Below are positions 47,339-55,396 of a stretch of 64,000 bases of DNA, piece after piece. How positions within the stretch are numbered: the first letter of the stretch is position 1; the number at the start of each line of letters is the position of its first letter. The position numbers and the translations under genes are program-made. This DNA is from Patescibacteria group bacterium (GTDB lineage: Bacteria; Patescibacteriota; Patescibacteriia; Buchananbacterales; UBA6539), in NCBI GenBank assembly GCA_034003985.1, contig JAVEXP010000001.1:68924-132923 (forward strand). Direction: 5' to 3'. The notes beneath the pieces are model-generated. The model ran no database searches. It was not told where the DNA came from and was given only the letters and a program-made list of their open reading frames with translations.

Positions 47339-48064
47339 TTAATAATTTTTTTGGTATTTTGGCGCCGGTCGCTCGTTGGGATTAATTATTTTTTGGGATT
47401 TTTGAGCAAGCTTGATTTTCTTTTGTTCCATTCGATATATCCCAATCATAAAGAATACCCCGGCCAAAACTAGGCCGATTATCAGGTAAGTGGTCGGTAG
47501 CGACCCCAAAAAAGCAATGGTTAGACAGAAGGGGATTAGTCCCAGGAGAGTGGCCCAGAAAAAAGTTTTGGTTTCCACTCTGGTTATTAATCCCAATACA
47601 TAACTTAAGCCGTCAAACGGTGTTACCATTCTTAAGAAAAAGATTGTCCAAAAGATATTTTGATTAGGAATCAGCTTTTCGATTTTTTCTATTTTTTTGA
47701 GCGGTATGATTTTGGCGATGTGCGGCCGACCAAATCGCCGAGCAATATTAAAAGCAATCAGCGCGCCGATTGTCCAACCAATGGTGGACAGCACCGTGGT
47801 CATACCAATGCCCCATAATTTTGTCCCCATGGGGATTAGGGGCATTGAACTGATGGGGATTAAAACAATCGAAAGAATGAATATCAGAATATATAGCAGC
47901 ATCCCGGTTAGCGATTTCAGGCCAATGACTTTTTGGATGTCGGTTTGATAGCTGTTGAAGATATATGACGAAATCAGGAACAAAATGGCGATAATTAGGG
48001 TTGAGGAAACAATTTTAATTTTTTCTTCTCGGTTTTTTTGCCCAAACTCATTGAGGATTTTCAT
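47339..48064 (-). CDS. TVP38/TMEM64 (DedA superfamily) membrane protein
   Basis: The topology and the 'FLRMVTPFDGLSYVLGL' re-entrant segment are typical of YdjX/TVP38. Confidence 0.55.
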   Translation of the reverse strand: MKILNEFGQKNREEKIKIVSSTLIIAILFLISSYIFNSYQTDIQKVIGLKSLTGMLLYILIFILSIVLIPISSMPLIPMGTKLWGIGMTTVLSTIGWTIGALIAFNIARRFGRPHIAKIIPLKKIEKIEKLIPNQNIFWTIFFLRMVTPFDGLSYVLGLITRVETKTFFWATLLGLIPFCLTIAFLGSLPTTYLIIGLVLAGVFFMIGIYRMEQKKIKLAQKSQKIINPNERPAPKYQKNY

Positions 48065-48212
48065 GTTTTTAAAAACAGTTCGAAATCAGATAAATAAAAT
48101 TGATGTCGCTGGTTAATATTTAGTGCTTGGCTTAATTTTAGCATAATTACAGTTCAGACGAAAGAAAATATAGTAATGGATTTTTGTTGGGTTGTTTGGG
48201 TTTTTTCTTTTC

Positions 48213-48241
48213 TTGACTATTTTGTTAAAATGTGATATTAT
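48213..48241 (+). promoter_or_regulatory. Consensus promoter P2
   Basis: TTGACT (48213-48218), a 17-nt spacer and TATTAT (48236-48241). The RBS 'GAGGAGAG' follows before the ATG at 48292. Confidence 0.55.
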
Positions 48242-48291
48242 AGGATGTTCGTCGGATTCTAGTAAATGGCAAACATGAGGAGAGAAATGCC

Positions 48292-48570
48292 ATGAACAAA
48301 CCAATCGTCGGCCACAAAATCCTTAAAGCCTTGGAAGGTTTTGAGGCCGGTTTGGGCGATGATGCCAGCATCCAGCCCGCCATTCTGGCCAATCGGAATT
48401 TTGATCCGAGCCGGGTTGTGGCAGCCTGGGGCGGATACCTCAACGATGCCTGGACCGACAAGATCCAGGCGAAAATCCAGGAGGGTTTCACGGTCGTGCG
48501 AATCCAGACCGAATGGACTGGCAAGGCACACCGGACCATGATTTACCTGGTCAAACTGAGCGCCGAATAA
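48292..48570 (+). CDS. Hypothetical 92-aa protein in a GC-rich islet
   Basis: It has a strong promoter, an RBS and a terminator. GC is about 55%. Confidence 0.45.
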   Translation: MNKPIVGHKILKALEGFEAGLGDDASIQPAILANRNFDPSRVVAAWGGYLNDAWTDKIQAKIQEGFTVVRIQTEWTGKAHRTMIYLVKLSAE

Positions 48571-48598
48571 CCATTTGGCCGACATTGCTCAGTTTTGA

Positions 48599-48633
48599 GA
48601 AGCCGCATGGTGCGCCCAGCGGCTTCTTTTCTT
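48599..48633 (+). terminator. Rho-independent terminator
   Basis: A perfect 8-bp stem 'gaagccgc/gcggcttc' with a 12-nt loop, followed by TTTTCTT. Confidence 0.65.
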
Positions 48634-48965
48634 ATCTAAAGCTAAACGGCAGTTATATTTTCCGCCAATATTTCGTGGCGTTCAAATGGTGGCATTAATA
48701 TTTATCTTTAATATATTTGATAACTTCTCGGTCGTGCTTTATTATTATTAGATTTTTTGTTTCTTCTGAGGTAAATCAACCCATCACTTGTCCTTCACCT
48801 TGGGTCAGTTTTAGGCCGGAATCATATTCTTCCATCCTACTCATAATAAGAATAAAAGTTAGGTGGAATAAAAAAATAATTAATTACCTATTAATCAAGA
48901 GTGTGTCGGGCAGTTTATATTTTGTGCAACCAGATAAAATGTGCTGGGCGCTGTTTTTTCTTTTC

Positions 48966-48994
48966 TTGACAGTCTTTTCTTGATATGATAATTT
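48966..48994 (+). promoter_or_regulatory. Promoter-like repeat copy P3
   Basis: It is TTGACA preceded by the same 'gctgttttttcttttc' leader as P2. The -10 is weak ('tatgat'/'taattt'). Confidence 0.35.
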
Positions 48995-49041
48995 GGATTG
49001 AGTTCTGGTAACATAGCTGACAACATAGGAGGAAACAGGAT

Positions 49042-49284
49042 ATGTCTACCAAGGCACTTTGGTGTATCAGTTTTAACGACGGTACTTCCGTTGAGGTACG
49101 AGGCTCAAGCAAGCGCAATGCTGACAATCAGGCTTGCGCGAAGGCTGGCAAGACTCATCGCGAGATCTGTTCTCGGGGCGTGGTTTGTGGCAAGCCTCAC
49201 AACGGAAAACGAAATCGATCAAGACATTCCGGTGTAGTACATCCTTGCGCCAGCCCCCTGTCCCGTTGGGGTTGGCACTACTAA
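49042..49284 (+). CDS. Hypothetical 80-aa basic Cys/His-containing protein in a GC-rich islet
   Basis: RBS 'TAGGAGGA' lies 8 nt before the ATG. The product begins 'MSTKALWCISFNDGTSVEVRGSSKRNADNQACAKAGKTHREICSRGVVCGKPHNGKRNRSRH'. Confidence 0.45.
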   Translation: MSTKALWCISFNDGTSVEVRGSSKRNADNQACAKAGKTHREICSRGVVCGKPHNGKRNRSRHSGVVHPCASPLSRWGWHY

Positions 49285-49314
49285 GCTTTCGCCCGTGTTC
49301 GTTTTTACCGGCCT

Positions 49315-49344
49315 TGTCTGGACTGCCCCACGATCGCGTCGCGG
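49315..49344 (+). terminator. Putative terminator
   Basis: Hairpin 'ccccacga-tcgcg-tcgcgggg' followed by a T8 run. Confidence 0.45.
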
Positions 49345-49371
49345 GGCTTTTTTTAGTAAAAAAATAACCTG

Positions 49372-49387
49372 GCACTAAAATGTGTTA
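49372..49387 (+). repeat. Core-site copy c1 ('gtgttaagtaatgtat') at the left edge of the cassette array
   Basis: It matches cores at 49867, 51088 and 52684, and their inverted copies at 50494, 52151 and 53229. Confidence 0.5.
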
Positions 49388-49864
49388 AGTAATGTATCTT
49401 TTTTCTTAAAAATTTGATTTTTTTGTTTTGAGAAATGAAAGAGGGGTTAGGGGGTGAATTTTATTTTTCAAAATTCCTTTTTAGCTTTTCTTATGAAAGT
49501 ATTTTTGGATCAAACAACCTATGAACGCGAAAAATAATCCAGAGCTGAGGAAGGTGATGATAACGACTCCCGCCACATCATCATTTGGGTTTAGATATTT
49601 CAATGCTGCTATCGCCCCACCAGCAAACACTTCGCCAAAGATAAAACCAGGTCTGTTTCGTGATTTTCAACCTCATTAAGTATAAATTCTCTTATTTTAG
49701 TGTAATTTTTATCCATATAGACATTGTAAACCCCTAAAATTTACATTGTAAACCATGTAAGTTTTAATAAAAAACAAGACCAAGGTCTTGGAGGAAAAGC
49801 ATATTTCATATAACGTTTCGGCATATACGATGTTGCGTTAGCAATATAGGCGAAGCGAAGCGTA

Positions 49865-49893
49865 GCCGTATATGCCGTGTTAAGTGATGTATG
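49865..49893 (+). repeat. Core-site copy c2 ('ccgtgttaagtgatgtatgacgagggcgg'), inverted partner of c3
   Basis: It lies directly 3' of the hydrolase cassette. About 21 of 27 positions match rc(c3). Confidence 0.55.
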
Positions 49894-49905
49894 ACGAGGG
49901 CGGTT

Positions 49906-50493
49906 TTAAGAGAGAATTGGTTTCAACTTTTCTAATAATAAATCAAATTTTGTATAACCTGCCTTGGTGTTGAAATGTCCTGCGTTCGGCACAAAATTTA
50001 GTGCCACTTTTAAGTTCTTCGCCAGCAATTCGCCATTTCCTAATGAGACATATGGATCATCGTCGGATTGGAAAACTTCAAAATGATGAGCTTTTGTAGA
50101 TATGGTTTTCCAATCAAATAAAAATCCGTTAAAACTACTGTCTCTGTCATAGTTTAAAATAGGGCGAACTCCAATAGGGGTGCCTACAAAAATAGCTGCT
50201 TTAACTGGATGTGCTAATTTTTCCAATATGCGGAGGGTAAAAATACCTCCCAAACTATGCCCGATTAAAATAGTATTTTCATCGAAATGTTGCTCGTAAT
50301 TTTTAAGAACATCAAACCACTCAGCTATTTTTGCGGGCACCACTGGTGGCGAAGGAAACTGTGGCACTAAAACATTATATCCTTTTTGTTCTAACTCTTG
50401 TTTTAACCAAGGAAACCAATTCTCTTTTGGATGGCCTTCAGTGCCGTGTATTATAAATATATTTTTCATATAGTTGTTGTTAGCCTTCGTCAT
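49906..50493 (-). CDS. Alpha/beta hydrolase, YdeN/RBBP9-like serine hydrolase
   Basis: 'IFIIHGTEGHPKENWFPWLKQELE' and the nucleophile elbow 'IGHSLGG'. Confidence 0.75.
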   Translation of the reverse strand: MTKANNNYMKNIFIIHGTEGHPKENWFPWLKQELEQKGYNVLVPQFPSPPVVPAKIAEWFDVLKNYEQHFDENTILIGHSLGGIFTLRILEKLAHPVKAAIFVGTPIGVRPILNYDRDSSFNGFLFDWKTISTKAHHFEVFQSDDDPYVSLGNGELLAKNLKVALNFVPNAGHFNTKAGYTKFDLLLEKLKPILS

Positions 50494-50607
50494 ATTTCAC
50501 TTAACGTTTTGGGCTAGCCGAAGTTTCGTTTGAACGTTGTGGTATAATTTGTGCGGAGCGCTACCATATAAGTGAAAACGAAATTTGGGTGAGCGCGCTA
50601 AATAAAA
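50494..50607. repeat. Intercassette repeat (long type, 114 bp) carrying inverted core c3
   Basis: It is homologous over about 135 bp to 52150-52293. It is internally palindromic ('tttcacttaacg...cgttttcacttat'). It contains 'ACGTTAAGTGA' on the minus strand. Confidence 0.55.
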
Positions 50608-51054
50608 TTATTCGCAACCCCAGCCATCATTATCTCGGTCAAGTCCAAAAACATCTGGACCAAGAACTTTTACTTTGCCTGTGTAATATGGGCCATTGCC
50701 GGAACCGCCAGCACAATCGTAATCGCTAGCGTTTGCTTTTAAGCATCCAGAATAGCTGGGATGGCAGTTTTGTTGCGCAACCGTGGCCGGTTTAGGAACA
50801 GGTTTGGGATCGGGTTCTATGGCAGGTTCTGGTTTTGGTTCAGGAACAACATAAGTTTTCTGAGGTTGCGGAGTTGGTTTAGGCTCGTCCTGGTTTTCTG
50901 CTATTGGTTCTGATTCTAAGGATTCTGGTGTTTGATTATATTCAACCTCAGTGCCTAAAACTTCACCATCAGTGCTAGATTGTAAGTTTGTTTGAGTTGC
51001 GCAACCGGAAAGAAAAAGAATTGAAATTAGCGCTACATTGATTAAGATTTTCAT
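50608..51054 (-). CDS. Secreted lipoprotein with C-terminal Excalibur calcium-binding domain
   Basis: 'ILFLSGCATQ' is the lipobox. There is a Pro/Glu-rich linker. The C-terminal 'DRDNDGWGCE' matches Excalibur DxDxDGxxCE. The ATG at 51054 is preferred. Confidence 0.65.
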   Translation of the reverse strand: MKILINVALISILFLSGCATQTNLQSSTDGEVLGTEVEYNQTPESLESEPIAENQDEPKPTPQPQKTYVVPEPKPEPAIEPDPKPVPKPATVAQQNCHPSYSGCLKANASDYDCAGGSGNGPYYTGKVKVLGPDVFGLDRDNDGWGCE

Positions 51055-51111
51055 AATTTTATTTAGCAAGCGCGAACCGGCTAGCCCGTGTTAGGTGATG
51101 TAAATCCGATT
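51055..51111. repeat. Intercassette repeat (short type, 57 bp) carrying core c4
   Basis: 'attttatttagcaagcgcgaaccggctagcccgtgttaggtgatgtaaatccgattc'. It is homologous to 52645-52699. Confidence 0.55.
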
Positions 51112-52149
51112 CTACAAAATTTCAAATTCATGTTCTTTGTTGTCCTCGACTATCTTAAGGAACTCATCGAATTCATTTCTTTTTTTATTGATAATATTTT
51201 CTAAAACATCGATTTTCAAATCCCTCAATCCTGTCGGCATGTTTGGGTCTAAATCATAACCTAGCAGGAAAATGTCGACGACTTTTATGTCATGATTGTG
51301 TCGTTCTATAATTCCCTTATACCCTAATATTTGACCAATATGATCAGCCTTGATTTTAACAGATGGCCGTTTTAATTCGACTAATACAACATGGTTAGAA
51401 TCTTGTAAGAACATTTTTACAATTAAGTCTGGTCTCTTACCGAGCTCGGGGTCGTCTTCTAAATTTTTGTCGAGATAATCGCTCAAGGTTTTGTCACTTC
51501 TAACTAGATCATAGTTATTATCCAAGAGCCACAAATTTTTTTCTAACAACTTATGTATCTCTCTTTCCTTCGTATCCTTTTGTTTAATAAGGTGCCCAAG
51601 TAGTTTAATAAGTGATATCTTTTTTCTTACCAACTCAGCTATTGTGCTGATCTGTCCTATTCTGAGCTCATTCAAAATTGCTACAAAATTGTCCAATTCG
51701 TCATTTTTAGCGTCTGACAATTGTTTAAGAAGAAAGTCGACATTTTCTGCCTTAATTTCATAAACTCTAACCGCTAATTTATCTAAAGCCTCGAAGCTAG
51801 CCTGAGATAAGCCAGCTACATTTTTATTTGAGAGGATCTTTTGAAGAAAATCAGGGTTACTTGCAAGTATCTCATTTAGGTTGTGAAGTACTTCTTGTTC
51901 CGTTGAATATTTAGTACTTGTTGGCCACTGATGGTATTGGTATGTTTCAGATTCGATGAGTTCCTTAAGATGATTCCAATCATCCAGGTATAAATTAAAT
52001 TTGCCAGTTTTCTCTGGATGACCGGTATGTACTCTTTCTAGGATAATATAGTTGCGATCTTGATGTTCTCCGTCACCAATTACTGCCAGCGTTGTAATGC
52101 CACTTTTCCAGGCTTTTGTGACTTTCTTTAAAAGTTTAAATTTTGTCAT
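51112..52149 (-). CDS. PD-(D/E)xK nuclease-fold protein, DUF4263/Shedu-like candidate
   Basis: 'RPDLIVKMFLQDSNHVVLVELKRP' fits PD...(D/E)xK. The upstream 'EREIHKLLEKNLWLLDNNY' resembles the helix preceding DUF4263 nuclease cores. The gene is flanked at both ends by a 26/28-identical inverted repeat. Confidence 0.5.
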   Translation of the reverse strand: MTKFKLLKKVTKAWKSGITTLAVIGDGEHQDRNYIILERVHTGHPEKTGKFNLYLDDWNHLKELIESETYQYHQWPTSTKYSTEQEVLHNLNEILASNPDFLQKILSNKNVAGLSQASFEALDKLAVRVYEIKAENVDFLLKQLSDAKNDELDNFVAILNELRIGQISTIAELVRKKISLIKLLGHLIKQKDTKEREIHKLLEKNLWLLDNNYDLVRSDKTLSDYLDKNLEDDPELGKRPDLIVKMFLQDSNHVVLVELKRPSVKIKADHIGQILGYKGIIERHNHDIKVVDIFLLGYDLDPNMPTGLRDLKIDVLENIINKKRNEFDEFLKIVEDNKEHEFEIL

Positions 52150-52293
52150 AGAATCGGATTTATGTCACCTAACGTATCGGCGTATCTGAAGTTTGGTTGG
52201 AGTAATCTGCTATAATTGCGCGAAGCGTCAGCAGATTGCGGAAACCGAATTTGGGCGAAGCGAGCGTTAAGAATAAAATATATATTTATGAAA
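52150..52293. repeat. Intercassette repeat (long type, 144 bp) carrying inverted core c5 and an internal 8-bp-stem hairpin
   Basis: 'gaatcggatttatgtcacctaacgtatcgg' is rc-homologous to c4. The hairpin 'aatctgct...agcagatt' is at 52204-52237. The tail 'cgaatttgggcgaagcgagcgttaagaataaaat' matches the 50577-50607 tail. Confidence 0.55.
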
Positions 52294-52644
52294 TTATTTA
52301 TTATCAAGAGAATCTAAAAAATTTTTAATGTTGGCTAAATGTCTTTCTTCTATCTTTTTTATTGAGTATATTTTAATTGAATCATGTTCGTATGAATAAG
52401 CGTCTGGTGGAATTTCTTTTGGCTCATATTTAGTTTTATCCTTTTCTTTAAATTTTATTTCGCCATTTTCTACGGTGTAGATTTCTCGACTAAGCCAACC
52501 TTGTTTTTGTGAACTATCTCTGTATATATAAATTTTTTTAGATTCCACGTCCAAAACACACATATTGACTTTTCGTTTTAGTTGTTGAGAAAGTGTAATC
52601 TTTTTAACTAACTCAACATTTGCAGATGTTGGGAAAGATTTCAT
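52294..52644 (-). CDS. Hypothetical 116-aa protein
   Basis: It has an ATG and is Lys-rich, with no recognisable motif. Confidence 0.4.
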   Translation of the reverse strand: MKSFPTSANVELVKKITLSQQLKRKVNMCVLDVESKKIYIYRDSSQKQGWLSREIYTVENGEIKFKEKDKTKYEPKEIPPDAYSYEHDSIKIYSIKKIEERHLANIKNFLDSLDNK

Positions 52645-52736
52645 AAATATATATTTTATTTAGCCCGCGTAGCCAGATACGCCGTGTTATATGATGTAAT
52701 AAAAAGCTATACTATTTCTAAAATAATTTTGGCAAT
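52645..52736. repeat. Intercassette repeat (short type) carrying core c6 ('gtgttatatgatgtaa')
   Basis: It aligns with 51055-51111 through 'TACATCA..TAACACGG...CGCG..GCTAAATAAAAT'. Confidence 0.5.
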
Positions 52737-53084
52737 TTATTTCAGATCCTTGTTATTTTTAGTGTTCGGATTAGGTCCATATTTATTTTGATCCGGCTCG
52801 CTGTCTGATGCCAAACGTATAATAAGCCACCATGGTGCAAATATCGACCAGCCACTTTTTCCAGTATCGTGTAATCTTCTAATTAAGACTGCTATCCATG
52901 GTGTTAGCGTTGCTAAAAAAAATAAATACCCAAGCATGCTCTCACTATCTCCGATAATGTAACCAATGAATTCAAGAGCAAAAAAAATCAAGTAATTAAA
53001 TAACGTAAAATACCAAAATTCGGCTTTCGTTGATCTCCCAGTAAATTGAGCGTATTTTTTCAAACCTAGAATGTAGTAGTTCAT
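52737..53084 (-). CDS. DUF805 family membrane protein
   Basis: 'RRLHDTGKSGWSI' is the DUF805 signature. It has 3 TM helices. Confidence 0.7.
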   Translation of the reverse strand: MNYYILGLKKYAQFTGRSTKAEFWYFTLFNYLIFFALEFIGYIIGDSESMLGYLFFLATLTPWIAVLIRRLHDTGKSGWSIFAPWWLIIRLASDSEPDQNKYGPNPNTKNNKDLK

Positions 53085-53228
53085 ATTGTTTTAAAATAAA
53101 TTACCAAAATTATTAATGAATTAAAGAGGCTTTTTGTTATGTCATATAACTACTATTATACGAACTTTGTTGATTTTTTGTTGAAATTAAGGTAAAATTT
53201 AAGCACCAACATAGCGCCTATAACCTAG

Positions 53229-53241
53229 TTACATCCTAACA
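53229..53241. repeat. Inverted core copy c7 ('gttacatcctaac'), 20 bp upstream of the recombinase start codon
   Basis: Its rc 'gttaggatgtaac' matches the 'gttaggtgatgtaa' core family. Confidence 0.4.
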
Positions 53242-53260
53242 AATAACTGGAAAAAATGCT

Positions 53261-54085
53261 ATGTTTTTTGATGCCTTAAAAAAAGAGCTAGAAATTCGCA
53301 ATTTAAGCGAAAAGACAGCCAGGGCTTATCTGTATTATAATGGTGATTTGCTTAAATTCTGCAAAAAAACACCCGAATCAATTAAGGAATTGGATATAAA
53401 AGAGTATGTTAGACATTTGGTTGTGGAAAGGCGGGCTTCGGCTTCGACTGTCAGACTGGCTTTGAATGCTTTAAAATTTTATTACTCAAATATTAAGAAA
53501 CGCCGGTTTGATTATCTTTCTAAGGCGGTGTTGCCTAAAAAACCAAAAAGGTTGCCGGTGGTTTTATCTAAATCCGAAGTGGCAAAATTGTTAAGTTGCG
53601 TTGTCAACAATAAACATCGGTTAATTTTGTCGCTGATGTATTCTTCCGGCTTGAGAGTTAGTGAAGTTGTAACTTTAAGAACTCAGGACTTTGATTTGGA
53701 AAATAAAATTTTGTGGGTTAGACAGGGTAAGGGCAGAAAGGATCGACGAACAATCATTGCTGAAAAGTTAATTGATGATTTAAATCAATTGATCAGCTGT
53801 AAAGAAGTTGGTGATTATATTTTTCCCAGCCAGGATGGGATTGGACATCTTACCGCCCGAACAGCAGAAAAGATTTTTCAATCCGCACTGGTTAAATCAG
53901 GAGTCAAGAAGGAAGCGACATGCCATAGTTTGCGCCATAGTTTTGCCACTCATCTTTTGGAAGATGGGACTGATATTCGTTATATTCAAAGTTTGTTGGG
54001 ACATCAAAGTTTAACAACTACTCAGATCTATACCAAAGTGAGCAGTGGGCATTTAAGTCAGATCAAATCACCATTTGATTGTTAG
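53261..54085 (+). CDS. Tyrosine site-specific recombinase (XerC/XerD-like integrase)
   Basis: It has an N-terminal SAM-like domain. The C-terminal 'HSLRHSFATHLLEDGTDIRYIQSLLGHQSLTTTQIYTKV' contains the catalytic R-H-R-Y residues. Confidence 0.85.
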   Translation: MFFDALKKELEIRNLSEKTARAYLYYNGDLLKFCKKTPESIKELDIKEYVRHLVVERRASASTVRLALNALKFYYSNIKKRRFDYLSKAVLPKKPKRLPVVLSKSEVAKLLSCVVNNKHRLILSLMYSSGLRVSEVVTLRTQDFDLENKILWVRQGKGRKDRRTIIAEKLIDDLNQLISCKEVGDYIFPSQDGIGHLTARTAEKIFQSALVKSGVKKEATCHSLRHSFATHLLEDGTDIRYIQSLLGHQSLTTTQIYTKVSSGHLSQIKSPFDC

Positions 54086-54094
54086 TTTATTCTT

Positions 54095-54152
54095 TTGTCA
54101 TTGCGAGGATCCGCCAATAGGCGGAGACGAAGTAATCTTCTCGCAGCGACAT
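54095..54152. repeat. Diverged palindromic element ('tgtcattgcgag...ctcgcagcgaca')
   Basis: Its terminal inverted repeats flank a 'ccgcc-aatag-gcgg' hairpin. It is related to the MITE-like family below. Confidence 0.45.
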
Positions 54153-54185
54153 GGAGAGTTTTTTTGGATTACAATTTTAAACCCC

Positions 54186-54299
54186 GTGTCATTCTGAGGC
54201 CGCAGGCCGAAGAATCTCTAGACAGAATTGATGTCCTTTACTTTGAGATCCTTCGCTTCGCTCAGGATGACAAGAAGGTGGCTCAGGATGACAATGGGG
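54186..54299. repeat. MITE-like palindromic repeat copy 1 (A+B modules) with an 18-bp tandem 'ggatgacaaRaaggtg' tail
   Basis: 'tgtcattctgaggccgcaggccgaagaatctct...gagatccttcgcttcgctcaggatgaca'. The termini 'tgtcattctgag'/'ctcaggatgaca' are inverted. The internal arms 'cgaagaatctc' and 'gagatccttcg' are complementary. Confidence 0.6.
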
Positions 54300-54323
54300 T
54301 AGGATTATAGTAATACAATATAT

Positions 54324-54620
54324 ATGCCCGGTAGAATATATTATGTTTATTTAATGGTAAACAAGACTAATACGGTAGTTTATACAGGGGTGACAAATAA
54401 CCTGAGACGACGAGTTTTTGAACATAAGAATAAGTTAGTTAAGGGGTTTACCAGTAAGTATAATGTGAATAAATTGGTTTATTTTGAAGAAACTGAAGAT
54501 GTGTCCACGGCAATTTTTCGTGAAAAACAGATTAAGGGTTGGTTAAGAATAAAGAAAATTAAGTTAATTCAAACACGAAATCAGGGGTTTAAGGATTTAA
54601 GTGAATATTGGTATGATTAA
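54324..54620 (+). CDS. Stand-alone GIY-YIG nuclease domain protein (UPF0213-like)
   Basis: 'YYVYLMVNKTNTVVYTGVTNNLRRRVFEH' carries the GIY..YIG and R..E motifs. Confidence 0.75.
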   Translation: MPGRIYYVYLMVNKTNTVVYTGVTNNLRRRVFEHKNKLVKGFTSKYNVNKLVYFEETEDVSTAIFREKQIKGWLRIKKIKLIQTRNQGFKDLSEYWYD

Positions 54621-54631
54621 TTTTTTACTTT

Positions 54632-54737
54632 GTCATTCTGAGGCCGCAGGCCGAAGAATCTCTGGACAGAATTGTTTGAGATCCTTCGCTTCACTCAGGA
54701 TGACAAAAGAAGATTTCCACGATGACAAAAGAGAGTG
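54632..54737. repeat. MITE-like palindromic repeat copy 2
   Basis: It is near-identical to copy 1 in modules A (54632-54674) and B (54678-54737). Confidence 0.6.
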
Positions 54738-54835
54738 TTTGGTATAACAAAAGAGATGACTTTGGTTCGCAACAATCTGTCTGCTGGTAATCGGTAATGA
54801 CAGATTAGCACCGCGGCAATAAAATACTATTGTTA

Positions 54836-54864
54836 TTGACATAAATTTTGGCTAGGTATACAAT
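54836..54864 (+). promoter_or_regulatory. Consensus sigma70-type promoter (TTGACA, 17 nt, TACAAT)
   Basis: TTGACA at 54836-54841, the spacer 'taaattttggctaggta' and TACAAT at 54859-54864. No ORF follows. Confidence 0.55.
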
Positions 54865-54870
54865 GTGAAT

Positions 54871-55076
54871 ACCTAAGGTGATTGGTAAGGCTACCAACTT
54901 TACAGCGAGATCCTTCGCTTCGCTCAGGATGACAAGAGCGGCTAAACTTTTTAGGCCAATAAAATAAATTGAGTGTCCCGATAAAATCGGGAAAGTTGGG
55001 TGGAACCGCCCCGATAATTTACCTGCCTCGGCAGGTCGGAGTCCCAAGCAGAAATTTTCTGGTTGGTTTTTTGTTT
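54871..55076 (+). ncRNA. Candidate small RNA (about 205 nt) of unknown family, with a 3' intrinsic terminator
   Basis: It has no ORF longer than 12 codons. It carries perfect hairpins 'tcccgat-aaa-atcggga' and 'acctgcc-tc-ggcaggt'. The terminal hairpin is 'ccaagcagaa-attt-ttctggttgg' followed by TTTTTTGTTT. It embeds one B-module repeat at 54907-54936. Confidence 0.4.
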
Positions 55077-55093
55077 GGATATCTTTCGCTTCG

Positions 55094-55150
55094 AGATCCT
55101 TCGCTTCGCTCAGACAAAAGAAGATTTCCACGATGACAAGAAGGTGGCCC
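55094..55150. repeat. MITE-like B-module half copy
   Basis: 'gagatccttcgcttcgctcagacaaaagaagatttccacgatgacaagaaggtggcccaggat'. Confidence 0.5.
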
Positions 55151-55253
55151 AGGATTATAAAGAGAGTGTTTAGGGTAATGGGTGGGGTAATTGCGACAGG
55201 ATTTAGAATGGCATTAGGGTGTTTATTTTGATTATCAACCCAATATCATGTTG

Positions 55254-55396
55254 TGTCATTCTGAGGCCGTAGGCCGAAGAATCTCTGGACAGAATTGTTT
55301 GAGATCCTTCGCTTCGCTCAGGATGACAAAAGAAGATTTCCACGATGACAAGAAGGTGTTCGGGATGACAAGAAGGTGTTCGGGATGACAGGAAGT
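55254..55396. repeat. MITE-like palindromic repeat copy 3 with 2.5 tandem copies of a 20-bp unit 'gatgacaagaaggtgttcgg'
   Basis: It has the A module (55254-55296) and the B module (55301-55340). The tandem units at 55345-55396 run up to the GNAT gene. Confidence 0.6.

Follow-up and report, generated by a model that had tools for sequence, protein, structure and literature searches.

The V. cholerae superintegron (VCR-type attC sites, IntIA) has a divergent tyrosine recombinase, an attI site and a Pc-like promoter, and sedentary chromosomal integrons have arrays in one orientation, whose cassettes are mostly promoterless and of unknown function, with imperfect attC hairpins (R''-L''...L'-R') carrying AAC/GTT. 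In such integrons, R'' has its complement at the start of the cassette to which it belongs, the bottom strand is preferred, unrelated genes have similar attC-core families, and the cargo includes defence genes. Features of all these kinds were also found at the locus described here. In pdif modules of Acinetobacter plasmids, alternating recombination sites likewise bracket gene modules and the enzyme is of the Xer family, but those are plasmid-borne 28-bp duplex sites for XerC/XerD, whereas we found hairpins with co-varying arms, one recombinase and a chromosomal array. IS1111-attC insertion sequences, which are self-mobile and have their own enzymes, and group IIC-attC introns also place extra DNA within an attC hairpin, whereas here the insert was simply a small ORF between perfect inverted repeats, which lengthen the stem. 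The introns are likewise self-mobile and have their own enzymes (PMC7923331). Archaeal integrons (Ghaly et al. 2022, PMC9668308) share the integron architecture and an origin in metagenome-assembled genomes of uncultivated lineages, but are defined by IntI proteins having the IntI-specific domain, which was absent from the recombinase here. In the integration of CTX phage and other IMEX elements at dif, the substrate of XerCD, which has no I2 domain, is single-stranded DNA folded into a hairpin that resembles a duplex core site; exchange is limited to one strand, and the junction is resolved by replication (PMC7790495). We propose a similar one-strand exchange by an I2-less Xer-type enzyme on a folded hairpin, and IMEX elements also accumulate beside their site; however, they are phages or islands that hijack the host dif site, whereas the present array has cassettes of one gene each, as well as a promoter and, beside the recombinase gene, a dedicated junction.

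The window, by which we mean the whole 64-kb stretch that was analysed, comes from a candidate-phyla (Patescibacteria, CPR) bacterium and contained a chromosomal four-cassette array at 49.38-53.26 kb, adjoining the divergent gene of a 274-aa tyrosine recombinase (Table 1). GC content was 30-38% in the array and 40-46% in its flanks. Read outward on the minus strand, the first feature beside the recombinase gene was a conserved block (~110 nt), in which a small palindrome of R-box type and a Pc-like promoter preceded an attI-like junction with GTT as its last letters. The four cassettes followed, each starting with TT-NNNN-GA[A/C]AT. Cassettes 1-3 each closed with a hairpin site, and cassette 4 with an R'' box only. 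We consider it likely that this locus represents an integron-like platform of gene cassettes, sedentary and chromosomal, which is run by a Xer/XerA-type recombinase without an I2 domain. It is not a canonical integron, because the recombinase lacked the IntI-specific domain and scored as XerA-like, nor is it a pdif system, and we found no published description of such a system in the literature. Unlike sedentary chromosomal integrons, it resided in a CPR host; its R boxes measured ~12 nt (GTT-NNNN-GAMAT) and contained a fixed C.A/G.T mismatch, the L'-R' arm was the one with extra unpaired bases, cassette ends paired over 19-57 nt and reached start and stop codons, many sites had a conserved inner hairpin bearing a -10-like motif, and a loop could accommodate an entire gene (sites of 390-600 nt). 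The array and recombinase reported in the initial annotation were real, including the five minus-strand ORFs with short gaps, although several coordinates needed correction.

Table 1. Positions of array features in the window
Feature	Position	Strand	Basis or remark
ORFs	49906-50493, 50608-51054/51069, 51112-52149, 52294-52644, 52737-53084	-	Short gaps between
Cassette 4, decayed: frameshifted small membrane ORF (49609-49716 plus 49481-49630)	49382-49813	-	
Cassette 3: serine hydrolase gene (49906-50493) and complete 78-bp attC-like hairpin (49808-49885)	49814-50504	-	
Cassette 2: Shedu-like / PD-(D/E)xK-like gene (51112-52149) and split attC-like site (50499-51096)	50505-52172	-	
Cassette 1: DUF805 gene (52737-53084) and split attC-like site (52167-52692)	52173-53149	-	Pfam DUF805; detector
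Conserved inner hairpin module (P3), attC site 2	50520-50589		Alignment of sites
Conserved inner hairpin module (P3), attC site 1	52188-52256		Has TGCTATAAT (52208-52216, + strand)
attI-like junction: R' box GTTATATGACAT, preceded by conserved TTCGTATAATAGTA	53139-53150	-	Cross-genome similarity
Pc-like promoter (TCAACA-18-TATAAT), predicted, directed into array	53155-53184	-	Consensus match
Small R-box-type palindrome (..ATAAC-NNN-GTTAT..)	53219-53235		25-45 nt upstream of recombinase start
Tyrosine recombinase, 274 aa, XerA-like / IntI-like without I2 domain	53261-54085	+	Pfam, NCBIfam, structure comparison
15-mer GTGTTARGTGATGTA	49382, 49877, 51088, 52684	+	0-2 mismatches
Half-site GTT-NNNN-GA[A/C]AT	49803-49814, 50494-50505, 52162-52173, 53139-53150	-	Reverse copies
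Inverted repeat, 23 nt, 87%	49879-49901 / 50483-50505		
Inverted repeat, 15 nt, 100%	50597-50611 / 51053-51067		
Inverted repeat, 25 nt, 92%	51090-51114 / 52149-52173		
Inverted repeat, 23 nt, 100%	52272-52294 / 52638-52660		
Inverted repeat, 57 nt, 77%	52686-52742 / 53094-53150		

The recombinase matched Phage_integrase and Phage_int_SAM_4 in Pfam. Its top-scoring model was the integron integrase (TIGR02249; 232.5 bits, under the cutoff of 265, in two stretches), and the closest solved structure was the V. cholerae integron integrase, to which it aligned with 16 aa where IntI has 58 (PDB 2a3v). The score against NCBIfam NF040815 XerA_Arch (229 bits) passed the equivalog cutoff of 220. These scores and the missing I2 stretch agreed with the earlier description of the enzyme as Xer-like and not IntI. 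The catalytic residues R, K, H, R, H and Y showed no variation in 25 homologs. The IntI-specific domain reads extrahelical bases and blocks second-strand exchange (PMC7790495), and the lack of a domain with these roles counts against an integron-like platform. Since the XerA cutoff was passed, the recombinase could be a chromosome-dimer resolvase, and the CPR 'Cand' recombinases are assumed in the literature to be such resolvases, substituting for Xer (PMC8138268). If housekeeping resolution were its only role, with dif beside the gene, the hairpins would not be recombination sites but structured intergenic elements (terminators, insulators, antisense promoters or REP-like repeats) within a variable genomic island.

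The distribution of the sites spoke against this explanation. A strict structural detector (AACA, a 10-nt L'' box, its complement with <=1 mismatch, 4-7 nt, ACGTT) found three sites in the 64-kb window against 0.26 expected (1/200 shuffles reaches 3), all within the array, on the same strand and with 0 mismatches each. In 13 Patescibacteria loci with homologous recombinases it found 38 sites, which in every locus lay solely upstream of and antisense to the recombinase, with none on the other strand or downstream of the recombinase (~72 kb per compartment). As no sites lay outside the arrays, the REP elements or terminators named as a possible refutation of the initial annotation did not explain them. 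All sites ended in AAC/GTT boxes common with the conserved junction beside the recombinase gene, which likewise counts against intergenic structures of this kind. In favour of them, many hairpins had both an extended -10-like motif and a GC mini-hairpin: P3 of attC site 2 contained an extended -10-like motif (TGTGGTATAAT; 50538-50548, + strand) and a GC mini-hairpin, and the motif was found in 13 of 21 aligned sites. In P3 of attC site 1, several stem positions changed compensatorily between the window and L179/L181 in an alignment read by eye.

The repeated cores were R boxes of attC-like hairpins with the arrangement R''(..ACATC-NNNN-AAC)-AC-L''...L'-5/6 nt-R'(GTT-NNNN-GAMAT), in which L'' was ~10 nt long (consensus ggttTAT.cG), the centre between L'' and L' was variable, and the putative crossover point lay in R'(G|TT). 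The 15-mer GTGTTARGTGATGTA had six matches in the window at <=3 mismatches, against 1.8 +/- 1.3 expected (0/100 shuffles reach 6); those outside the array, at 47597 and 63828, are probably due to chance. The first two cores had been placed 10 nt too low (49372 and 49867), and '52151' was the start of an extended repeat whose core proper was 52162-52173. The reverse copies formed a half-site type of their own, and the strict alternation of orientation held once the overlooked ones at 49803-49814 and 53139-53150 were counted. The seventh core of the initial annotation, at 53229, belonged to the separate palindrome near the recombinase start and did not mark the array junction. Every ORF was bracketed by inverted repeats (five pairs), and the long and short intergenic repeat classes were recovered as families D4 and D5. 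The site of cassette 3 was complete and unsplit, contrary to the claim that R'' and R' never occur in a single site. The halves of the other two sites were indeed split across ORFs, because an ORF occupied the hairpin loop, and the same arrangement was found in L090, L092 and L093. The size of these split sites (598 and 526 nt) counts against our reading, and we know of no tested attC that approaches it; so does the fact that R''/R' heptamers matched RYYYAAC/GTTRRRY in just about half of the sites.

The R' box before an ORF and the R'' box after it were complementary at 14-15 of 16 positions in 11/21 adjacent pairs (mean 11.6), whereas R'' and R' within one hairpin agreed at 6.7 of 16, like unrelated pairs (6.9 +/- 2.0). 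Complementarity across the ORF but not within the hairpin is the classical cassette signature, and its tracking of cassette boundaries is a further point against structured intergenic elements. The L boxes varied from site to site, yet paired within each site; double compensatory changes occurred at 10/16 consensus pairs of the L stems, a count biased by the use of pairing as a selection criterion for the sites. The strand opposite the cassettes folded better in 27/31 sites (-26.5 vs -23.1 kcal/mol, p = 6e-6), because conserved C.A mismatches turn to G.T on that strand, and this makes an mRNA structure unlikely. The gap between the R and L boxes was 2 nt on one side and 5-6 nt on the other. 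The L-box co-variation, unequal spacing and strand-biased folding suggested that the substrate is a folded single strand and not an 11-6-11 duplex, and no 11-6-11 Xer-type site existed in the core regions. Alternating duplex Xer sites that flank gene modules and move them by ordinary double-strand recombination, as in pdif systems, would agree with the box orientation around every gene, the Xer-like recombinase and the seemingly independent assortment of gene-plus-R-arms and hairpin-core modules. Given the folding data, the presence of one recombinase instead of a XerC/XerD pair, and a chromosomal array that possesses a promoter and one unique attI-like end, we regard this mechanism as very improbable. 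Of the two readings offered initially, the non-canonical integron was therefore supported, by the imperfect hairpins, the junction with promoter, the R-box complementarity and recurrence in 13 genomes, and the pdif/Xer mechanism was not.

In cassette 1, the R/L boxes of the site paired across the 116-aa ORF (52294-52644) in its hairpin loop (z = -3.65). The cassette 2 gene product showed similarity to SduA_C (E = 2e-5, below the Pfam cutoff), to the BbrUII/HgiDII restriction-enzyme family (E = 1.5e-10, partial match) and to PADLOC SduA (E = 6e-4). The loop of its site held a lipoprotein ORF (50608-51054) with an Excalibur-type C-terminus, and the same frame enclosed other ORFs in L090 and L093. 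The cassette 3 product matched Pfam Ser_hydrolase (E = 4e-22), and the + strand of its site folded at -18.8 kcal/mol (z = -3.1), compared with -12.5 for the other strand. The R'' box at 49384-49395, where cassette 4 and the array ended, represented a truncated last site, with neither an L'' nor an R' box found beyond it; the terminal site of L179 was truncated in much the same way. Across the arrays, the cargo was diverse and mostly unannotated, and included restriction-modification systems (L001, L168) besides the Shedu-like gene.

Between genomes, the only similar DNA was that of the hairpin cores and of the block proximal to the recombinase; in the latter, similarity among 12 genomes started at the recombinase start and ended at the attI-like GTT. 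The left arm of this junction had the L-box consensus CG.ATAA, at the spacing found along the short hairpin arm. Inside the block, the predicted promoter matched 10 of 12 consensus positions, the joint top score in the region. An AAC-NNN-GTT palindrome stood at the same position in 9/13 loci printed, and it is a possible operator or recombinase-binding site.

The same architecture was found in 13 related genomes. Five contexts were found for the hairpin core that encloses the 116-aa ORF, with three different upstream genes (in the four contexts with a visible upstream side) and at least four different downstream neighbours. A three-way alignment that included L179 and L181 gave 86% mean column identity for core and ORF, and the upstream ORFs were unrelated. 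Similarity around the module stopped at AAC|AC and AC|GTT, that is, at the boxes. One module in five contexts suggested that cassettes have been shuffled, and exchange was apparent at the R'' side and the second-arm apex, which a single crossover at G|TT does not account for. At strain level, no cassette gain or loss was seen, as contigs with identical recombinases all had identical arrays, and no direct evidence of excision or insertion was found in the contigs compared. This stability is in keeping with a housekeeping resolvase amid structured intergenic elements, but the module's multiple contexts and its breaks at the boxes, together with the one-sided location of the sites, make that explanation unlikely. 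The identical arrays would also fit a decayed integron, whose integrase had lost its I2 domain and is now inactive on the sites, as would the frameshift in the window's last cassette and its truncated site. We judge such a fossil slightly less probable still. Genomes with recombinases only 60-69% identical had retained the I2-less design, the catalytic residues, the attI block and well-formed hairpins, and the non-coding frames of the hairpin module were better conserved than the enclosed ORF. In a rough neighbour-joining tree with no support values, the whole I2-less clade lay outside the I2-bearing clade and did not take the form of scattered losses.

An integron-like platform that may still be active could operate as follows. 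The strand opposite the cassette genes would fold, bringing the R and L boxes together as a duplex-like core whose unpaired spacer is asymmetric, and the neighbouring recombinase would bind this core and exchange one strand at AAC/GTT. With attI as partner, exchange would give insertion; with another hairpin, excision as a circle. The junction would then be resolved by replication, as in integrons and XerCD-mediated CTX-phage integration. In the excised circle, all non-coding bases would be paired into a long stem with two loops, one always gene-bearing and the other, a 'variable terminal structure', able to carry a second gene; this would account for the 'split' sites that enclose the lipoprotein ORF and the 116-aa ORF. 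The extra domain of IntI is thought to be essential for integrons. Compared with integrons, the locus is unusual in that its recombinase lacks this domain and in that some of its hairpin loops hold a whole extra gene.

The region at 49.4–54.1 kb of the window contained five tightly packed minus-strand ORFs beside a divergent 274-aa tyrosine recombinase, as the initial annotation had described; the features are listed in the table. Inverted repeats of 15–57 nt bracketed every ORF and reached its start and stop codons. The initial annotation had read the gaps as holding seven copies of one core in alternating orientation. The copies of its 15-mer, in + orientation, were real, although two of them were located 10 nt from the positions first assigned. 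Copies in the opposite orientation were also present but represented a related, distinct half-site, two occurrences of which had been missed, and a further supposed core at 53229 proved to be a separate small palindrome. No Rfam family was matched in the window at the gathering threshold.

Features of the cassette array and its surroundings in the window
Feature	Position	Strand	Remark
VTT-domain gene	47339–48064		
Stretch with GC patches	48100–49380		1.3 kb; patches of 49–50% GC
ORF	48292–48570	+	no family match
ORF	49042–49284	+	no family match
Strong hairpin with T-run	near 49320–49350		
Last cassette	49397–49813		
Tandem repeat	49721–49764		22 nt, ACATTGTAAACC.. ×2; last cassette
Terminator-like hairpin	49775–49790		last cassette
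15-mer core copies	49382, 49877, 51088, 52684		
Half-sites in opposite orientation	49803–49814, 50494–50505, 52162–52173, 53139–53150		last one: attI-like junction
Complete unsplit site	49808–49885		78 bp
Split site	50499–51096		
Split site	52167–52692		
TGnTAnAAT motif	50538–50548, 52208–52216	+	extended −10-like
Serine hydrolase ORF		−	PF06821
Lipoprotein ORF		−	Excalibur-type C-terminus
345-aa protein		−	weak Shedu SduA_C and restriction-enzyme similarity
116-aa protein		−	no family match
DUF805 protein		−	
Small palindrome	53219–53235		AAC-NNN-GTT
Tyrosine recombinase	53261–54085	+	274 aa
Two short repeat families	54086–55300		3–5 copies
GIY-YIG nuclease gene	54324–54620		just downstream of the recombinase

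Read on the minus strand, away from the recombinase, the sites of the array had the order R'' (..ACATC-NNNN-AAC), AC, L'' of approximately 10 nt, a variable centre, the complementary L', 5–6 unpaired nt ending in AC, and R' (GTT-NNNN-GA[A/C]AT). Apart from the single unsplit site, the halves of the sites in the window were 526 nt apart, around the 116-aa ORF, and 598 nt apart, around the ORF of the lipoprotein. When the whole stretches were folded, the R and L boxes paired across the ORF, as did the perfect repeats flanking it. The long and short spacers folded singly were no better than shuffled sequence (z = −0.35 to +0.6), and they paired exclusively with one another, spanning the ORF. A fixed C·A mismatch between ACATC of R'' and GA[C/A]AT of R', like a second one inside the inner hairpin, turns into G·T on the strand opposite the genes, and that strand folded more stably in 27 of 31 sites, as was also seen in the window. 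The L stems showed many double compensatory changes, in sites for which pairing had itself been a criterion of selection. These sites share with attC the imperfect R''-L''...L'-R' palindrome, the AAC/GTT ends, the unpaired spacer and extra bases, and the favoured bottom strand. In contrast to canonical attC, only about half of them fit the RYYYAAC/GTTRRRY consensus, the extra bases are found in the opposite arm, and two sites reach 526–598 nt. An extended −10-like TGnTAnAAT beside a 4-bp GC mini-hairpin occurred inside both long hairpin sites and was kept in 13 of 21 aligned sites of related loci; it is located on the strand opposite the cassettes, antisense to them and pointing toward the recombinase gene, and might function as promoter, as melting element, or as a site for a protein.

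A degenerate regular expression for the R boxes alone (150 matches versus 126 in shuffles, uninformative) and a 9-nt L-box detector allowing one mismatch (approximately 50 matches per strand) gave way to a stricter detector consisting of AACA, a 10-nt box, its complement (≤1 mismatch), 4–7 nt, and ACGTT. On both strands of the 64 kb it found exactly the three array sites and none in the other 60 kb, whereas shuffles averaged 0.26 sites and 1 of 200 reached three. The same detector found 38 sites in 13 loci with recombinase homologs, all on the strand opposite the recombinase and upstream of it, and none downstream (approximately 72 kb) or on the wrong strand (2 × 72 kb). A terminator scan gave four matches versus 2.3 expected. 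The initial annotation had named REP elements or ordinary terminators, present at equal density elsewhere, as the competing explanation of the cores. Since the sites were confined to one locus, upstream of and antisense to the recombinase, and did not occur beyond the array in the window or in related loci, both were ruled out. Viral contigs scanned for the conserved hairpin frame gave no matches. pdif modules are bounded by 28-bp XerC/XerD duplex sites in alternating orientation, and the initial annotation had likened the array to them or to a non-canonical integron, and had named an 11-6-11 Xer-type site as one form to check for. No 11-6-11 site was found; the two arms are unequally spaced, the L boxes vary in concert, and one strand folds better than the other, and the pdif reading was rejected.

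The recombinase belongs to a family that is large in Patescibacteria (7,243 database proteins at E < 1e-20), and its closest non-identical relatives showed 60–69% identity. A scan of genome contigs with the recombinase alignment gave, among the matches listed, mostly distant relatives of ≤49% identity. The catalytic residues were invariant in 25 homologs. The integron-integrase model TIGR02249 matched the recombinase in two pieces at 232.5 bits, below its cutoff of 265, and the NCBIfam XerA model NF040815 matched at 229 bits, above its cutoff of 220 (homologs, 226–261); the two models score the protein about equally, and by sequence it is a member of the XerA type. Its best match among solved structures was the Vibrio cholerae integron integrase (PDB ID: 2a3v), split in two stretches, and at the stretch that includes the IntI-specific domain it had 16 aa versus 58 in 2a3v. 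The distance from GKGxKDR to HxLRH was 58–59 aa in the recombinase clade versus 100 aa in IntI-like loci. A canonical integron, as understood by IntegronFinder and Messier & Roy, reportedly has a tyrosine recombinase with an IntI-specific (I2) domain near patch III, and this domain is absent from the window recombinase. An I2 insertion in the longer homologs (approximately 350 aa) was rejected, as their extra length was an N-terminal extension. In a rough neighbour-joining tree without support values, the I2-bearing proteins formed one clade amid I2-less relatives from CPR, DPANN, Bacteroidota, and others, and this clade and the I2-less relatives were nearer to one another than to Pyrococcus XerA or E. 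coli XerD. The locus is integron-like, yet by the I2 domain it falls outside the definition of an integron, and it is not a pdif array. In two of the loci encoding homologs of the recombinase (designated by L numbers), L096 and L097, the match was restricted to residues 1–182 (63% identity), which suggests that the recombinase gene is truncated or interrupted there.

Every homolog examined was accompanied by a divergently oriented array of small genes, most of them unannotated. The cargo of related arrays included restriction-modification systems (L001 and L168), and at least six hairpin sites of the same type were read by eye in L001. DNA similarity between genomes was confined to the hairpin cores and to the 110–130 nt from the recombinase start to the first GTT, and when cassette proteins were compared between arrays none was shared except the 116-aa ORF. 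The recombinase-proximal block was 74–88% identical; in 12 of the 13 loci compared, among which L088 and L174 are the same locus, it ended at GTT, followed by an R' box of varying sequence. It held one of the region's three top-scoring promoter-consensus matches (10/12), pointing into the array. Its left arm carried the L-box consensus CG.ATAA, spaced as along the short arm of the hairpins, so that the block resembles the folded core in duplex form. The end of the block resembles attI in adjoining the recombinase gene, and the cassettes probably join there at G|TT. In a duplex dif site, at which chromosome dimers are resolved, a 6-bp centre separates two inverted arms of 11 bp; the only candidates seen at the locus were the small palindrome and the attI-like junction. 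The palindrome (..ATAAC-NNN-GTTAT..) has two R-box-like halves 25–45 nt upstream of the recombinase start codon, recurred there in 9 of the 13 loci, and might act as an operator in autoregulation or as a duplex site for recombination.

Many homolog contigs stopped 0–600 nt upstream of the recombinase gene (e.g. L009, L011, L012, L016, L031, L033, and L042). L007 ended right after an R' box, L185 started at an R'' box, and L184 and L185 ended shortly after an R' box. Such contig ends would fit an assembly that broke at a variable or repetitive array. I2-less homologs with attC-like hairpins also occurred in cultured Bacteroidota (Aquiflexum sp. TKW24L, L022, 12201–12334; Flavobacteriaceae S0862, L034, 12994–13126), in a Spirochaetota MAG (L008, 12755–12852 and others), and in a 43%-identical metagenome locus (L095, 11962–13976). 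At these loci the hairpins were downstream of the recombinase on the same strand, and the same kind of system may occur outside CPR in a different arrangement.

R-box complementarity is the footprint by which integron cassettes were historically defined. When the 16 positions after GTT were compared with the complemented R'' arm of the site that follows, 14–15 of 16 matched in 11 of 21 adjacent pairs; low values coincided with a missed intervening site. R'' and R' of one hairpin matched at 6.7 of 16 positions, no better than unrelated pairs (6.9 ± 2.0). The inverse core was complementary to the core at the cassette's own 5' end, as in integrons. In a circular form, both ends flanking a gene would be parts of one hairpin.

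The splitting of R'' and R' halves across ORFs, pointed out in the initial annotation, is real in the window but not unique to it, since a small ORF was also present between L'' and the inner hairpin in L090, L092, and L093. The window, L090, and L093 had a common frame, GGGCTAGCC..GCTAAATAAAAT before and ATTTTATTTAGC..CACCCAAAT after the ORF, around three different ORFs. The hairpin core with the 116-aa ORF was found in four further assemblies (67–84% protein identity); in all, this module had three different upstream and at least four different downstream neighbours. Upstream was a 28%-identical DUF805 protein in two assemblies, an unrelated lipoprotein in one, and in one a DUF805 protein of the window type, as inferred from the matching R'' arm. 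Similarity of the module began at AAC|AC and ended at AC|GTT, and its non-coding frame was better conserved than the enclosed ORF. These contexts are the best evidence here for what appears, from sequence comparison, to be shuffling at the boxes. They also show both hairpin loops apparently behaving as gene slots, and such two-loop slots are not fully explained by a single classical crossover at G|TT. The initial annotation had proposed comparing related genomes for presence or absence of individual cassettes at the cores. No strain-level differences of this kind were seen among assemblies with an identical recombinase (L005, L006, and L007, and the contig sets P0023 and P0006), and the array was identical in a second assembly of the window organism; one hairpin-plus-ORF module did occur in varied contexts, with breaks at the boxes. 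As identical recombinases came with identical arrays, activity is something we infer, and the arrays look sedentary.

The last cassette encloses a frameshifted ORF for a small membrane protein of approximately 80 aa. The GC-patched stretch between the truncated last hairpin and the VTT-domain gene could be foreign sequence that severed the end of the array. A VTT-domain gene was also present at the distal array end of L001 (27% identity). On the other side, the GIY-YIG gene lay amid the two short repeat families; it followed the same recombinase protein in L002 and was absent from L001, indicating presence/absence polymorphism of that gene.

Our literature search on integrons or gene cassettes in Patescibacteria/CPR found nothing relevant. 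Xer-related recombinases of CPR bear the group name 'Cand' in published work, which assumes that they stand in for Xer (PMC8138268). The IntI-specific domain is the basis for defining and detecting integrons (PMC9668308), and recombination of folded attC is held to have become possible when the I2 helix was acquired, an innovation also credited with preventing lethal second-strand exchange. A proposed origin of integrons is a Xer-like ancestor hijacked by hairpin elements (PMC7790495). Tentatively, and with low confidence, we propose a 'Xer-type integron': a recombinase without I2, near the integron-integrase root, would in many Patescibacteria (and perhaps also in some DPANN, Bacteroidota, and Spirochaetota) capture single-gene hairpin cassettes beside its own gene, at a site that may double as dif. 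If true, this would be a living version of the proposed Xer-plus-hairpin-element stage and a natural test of the Xer-to-IntI transition, and the I2 domain would be dispensable for cassette recombination. Each of the two hairpin loops would be a slot in which genes can be exchanged, with implications for how cassettes are made, and fully paired cassette ends and loop genes would offer new leads on the unsolved origin of cassettes. Because it bears on both the origin and the detection of integrons, the locus is of high interest: an I2-less platform would be missed by today's integron finders or recorded as an orphan attC cluster. Integron-like gene capture would extend to the CPR radiation, organisms whose genomes are very small and whose arrays nevertheless hold genes for defence (restriction-modification, Shedu-like) and many small unknown proteins.
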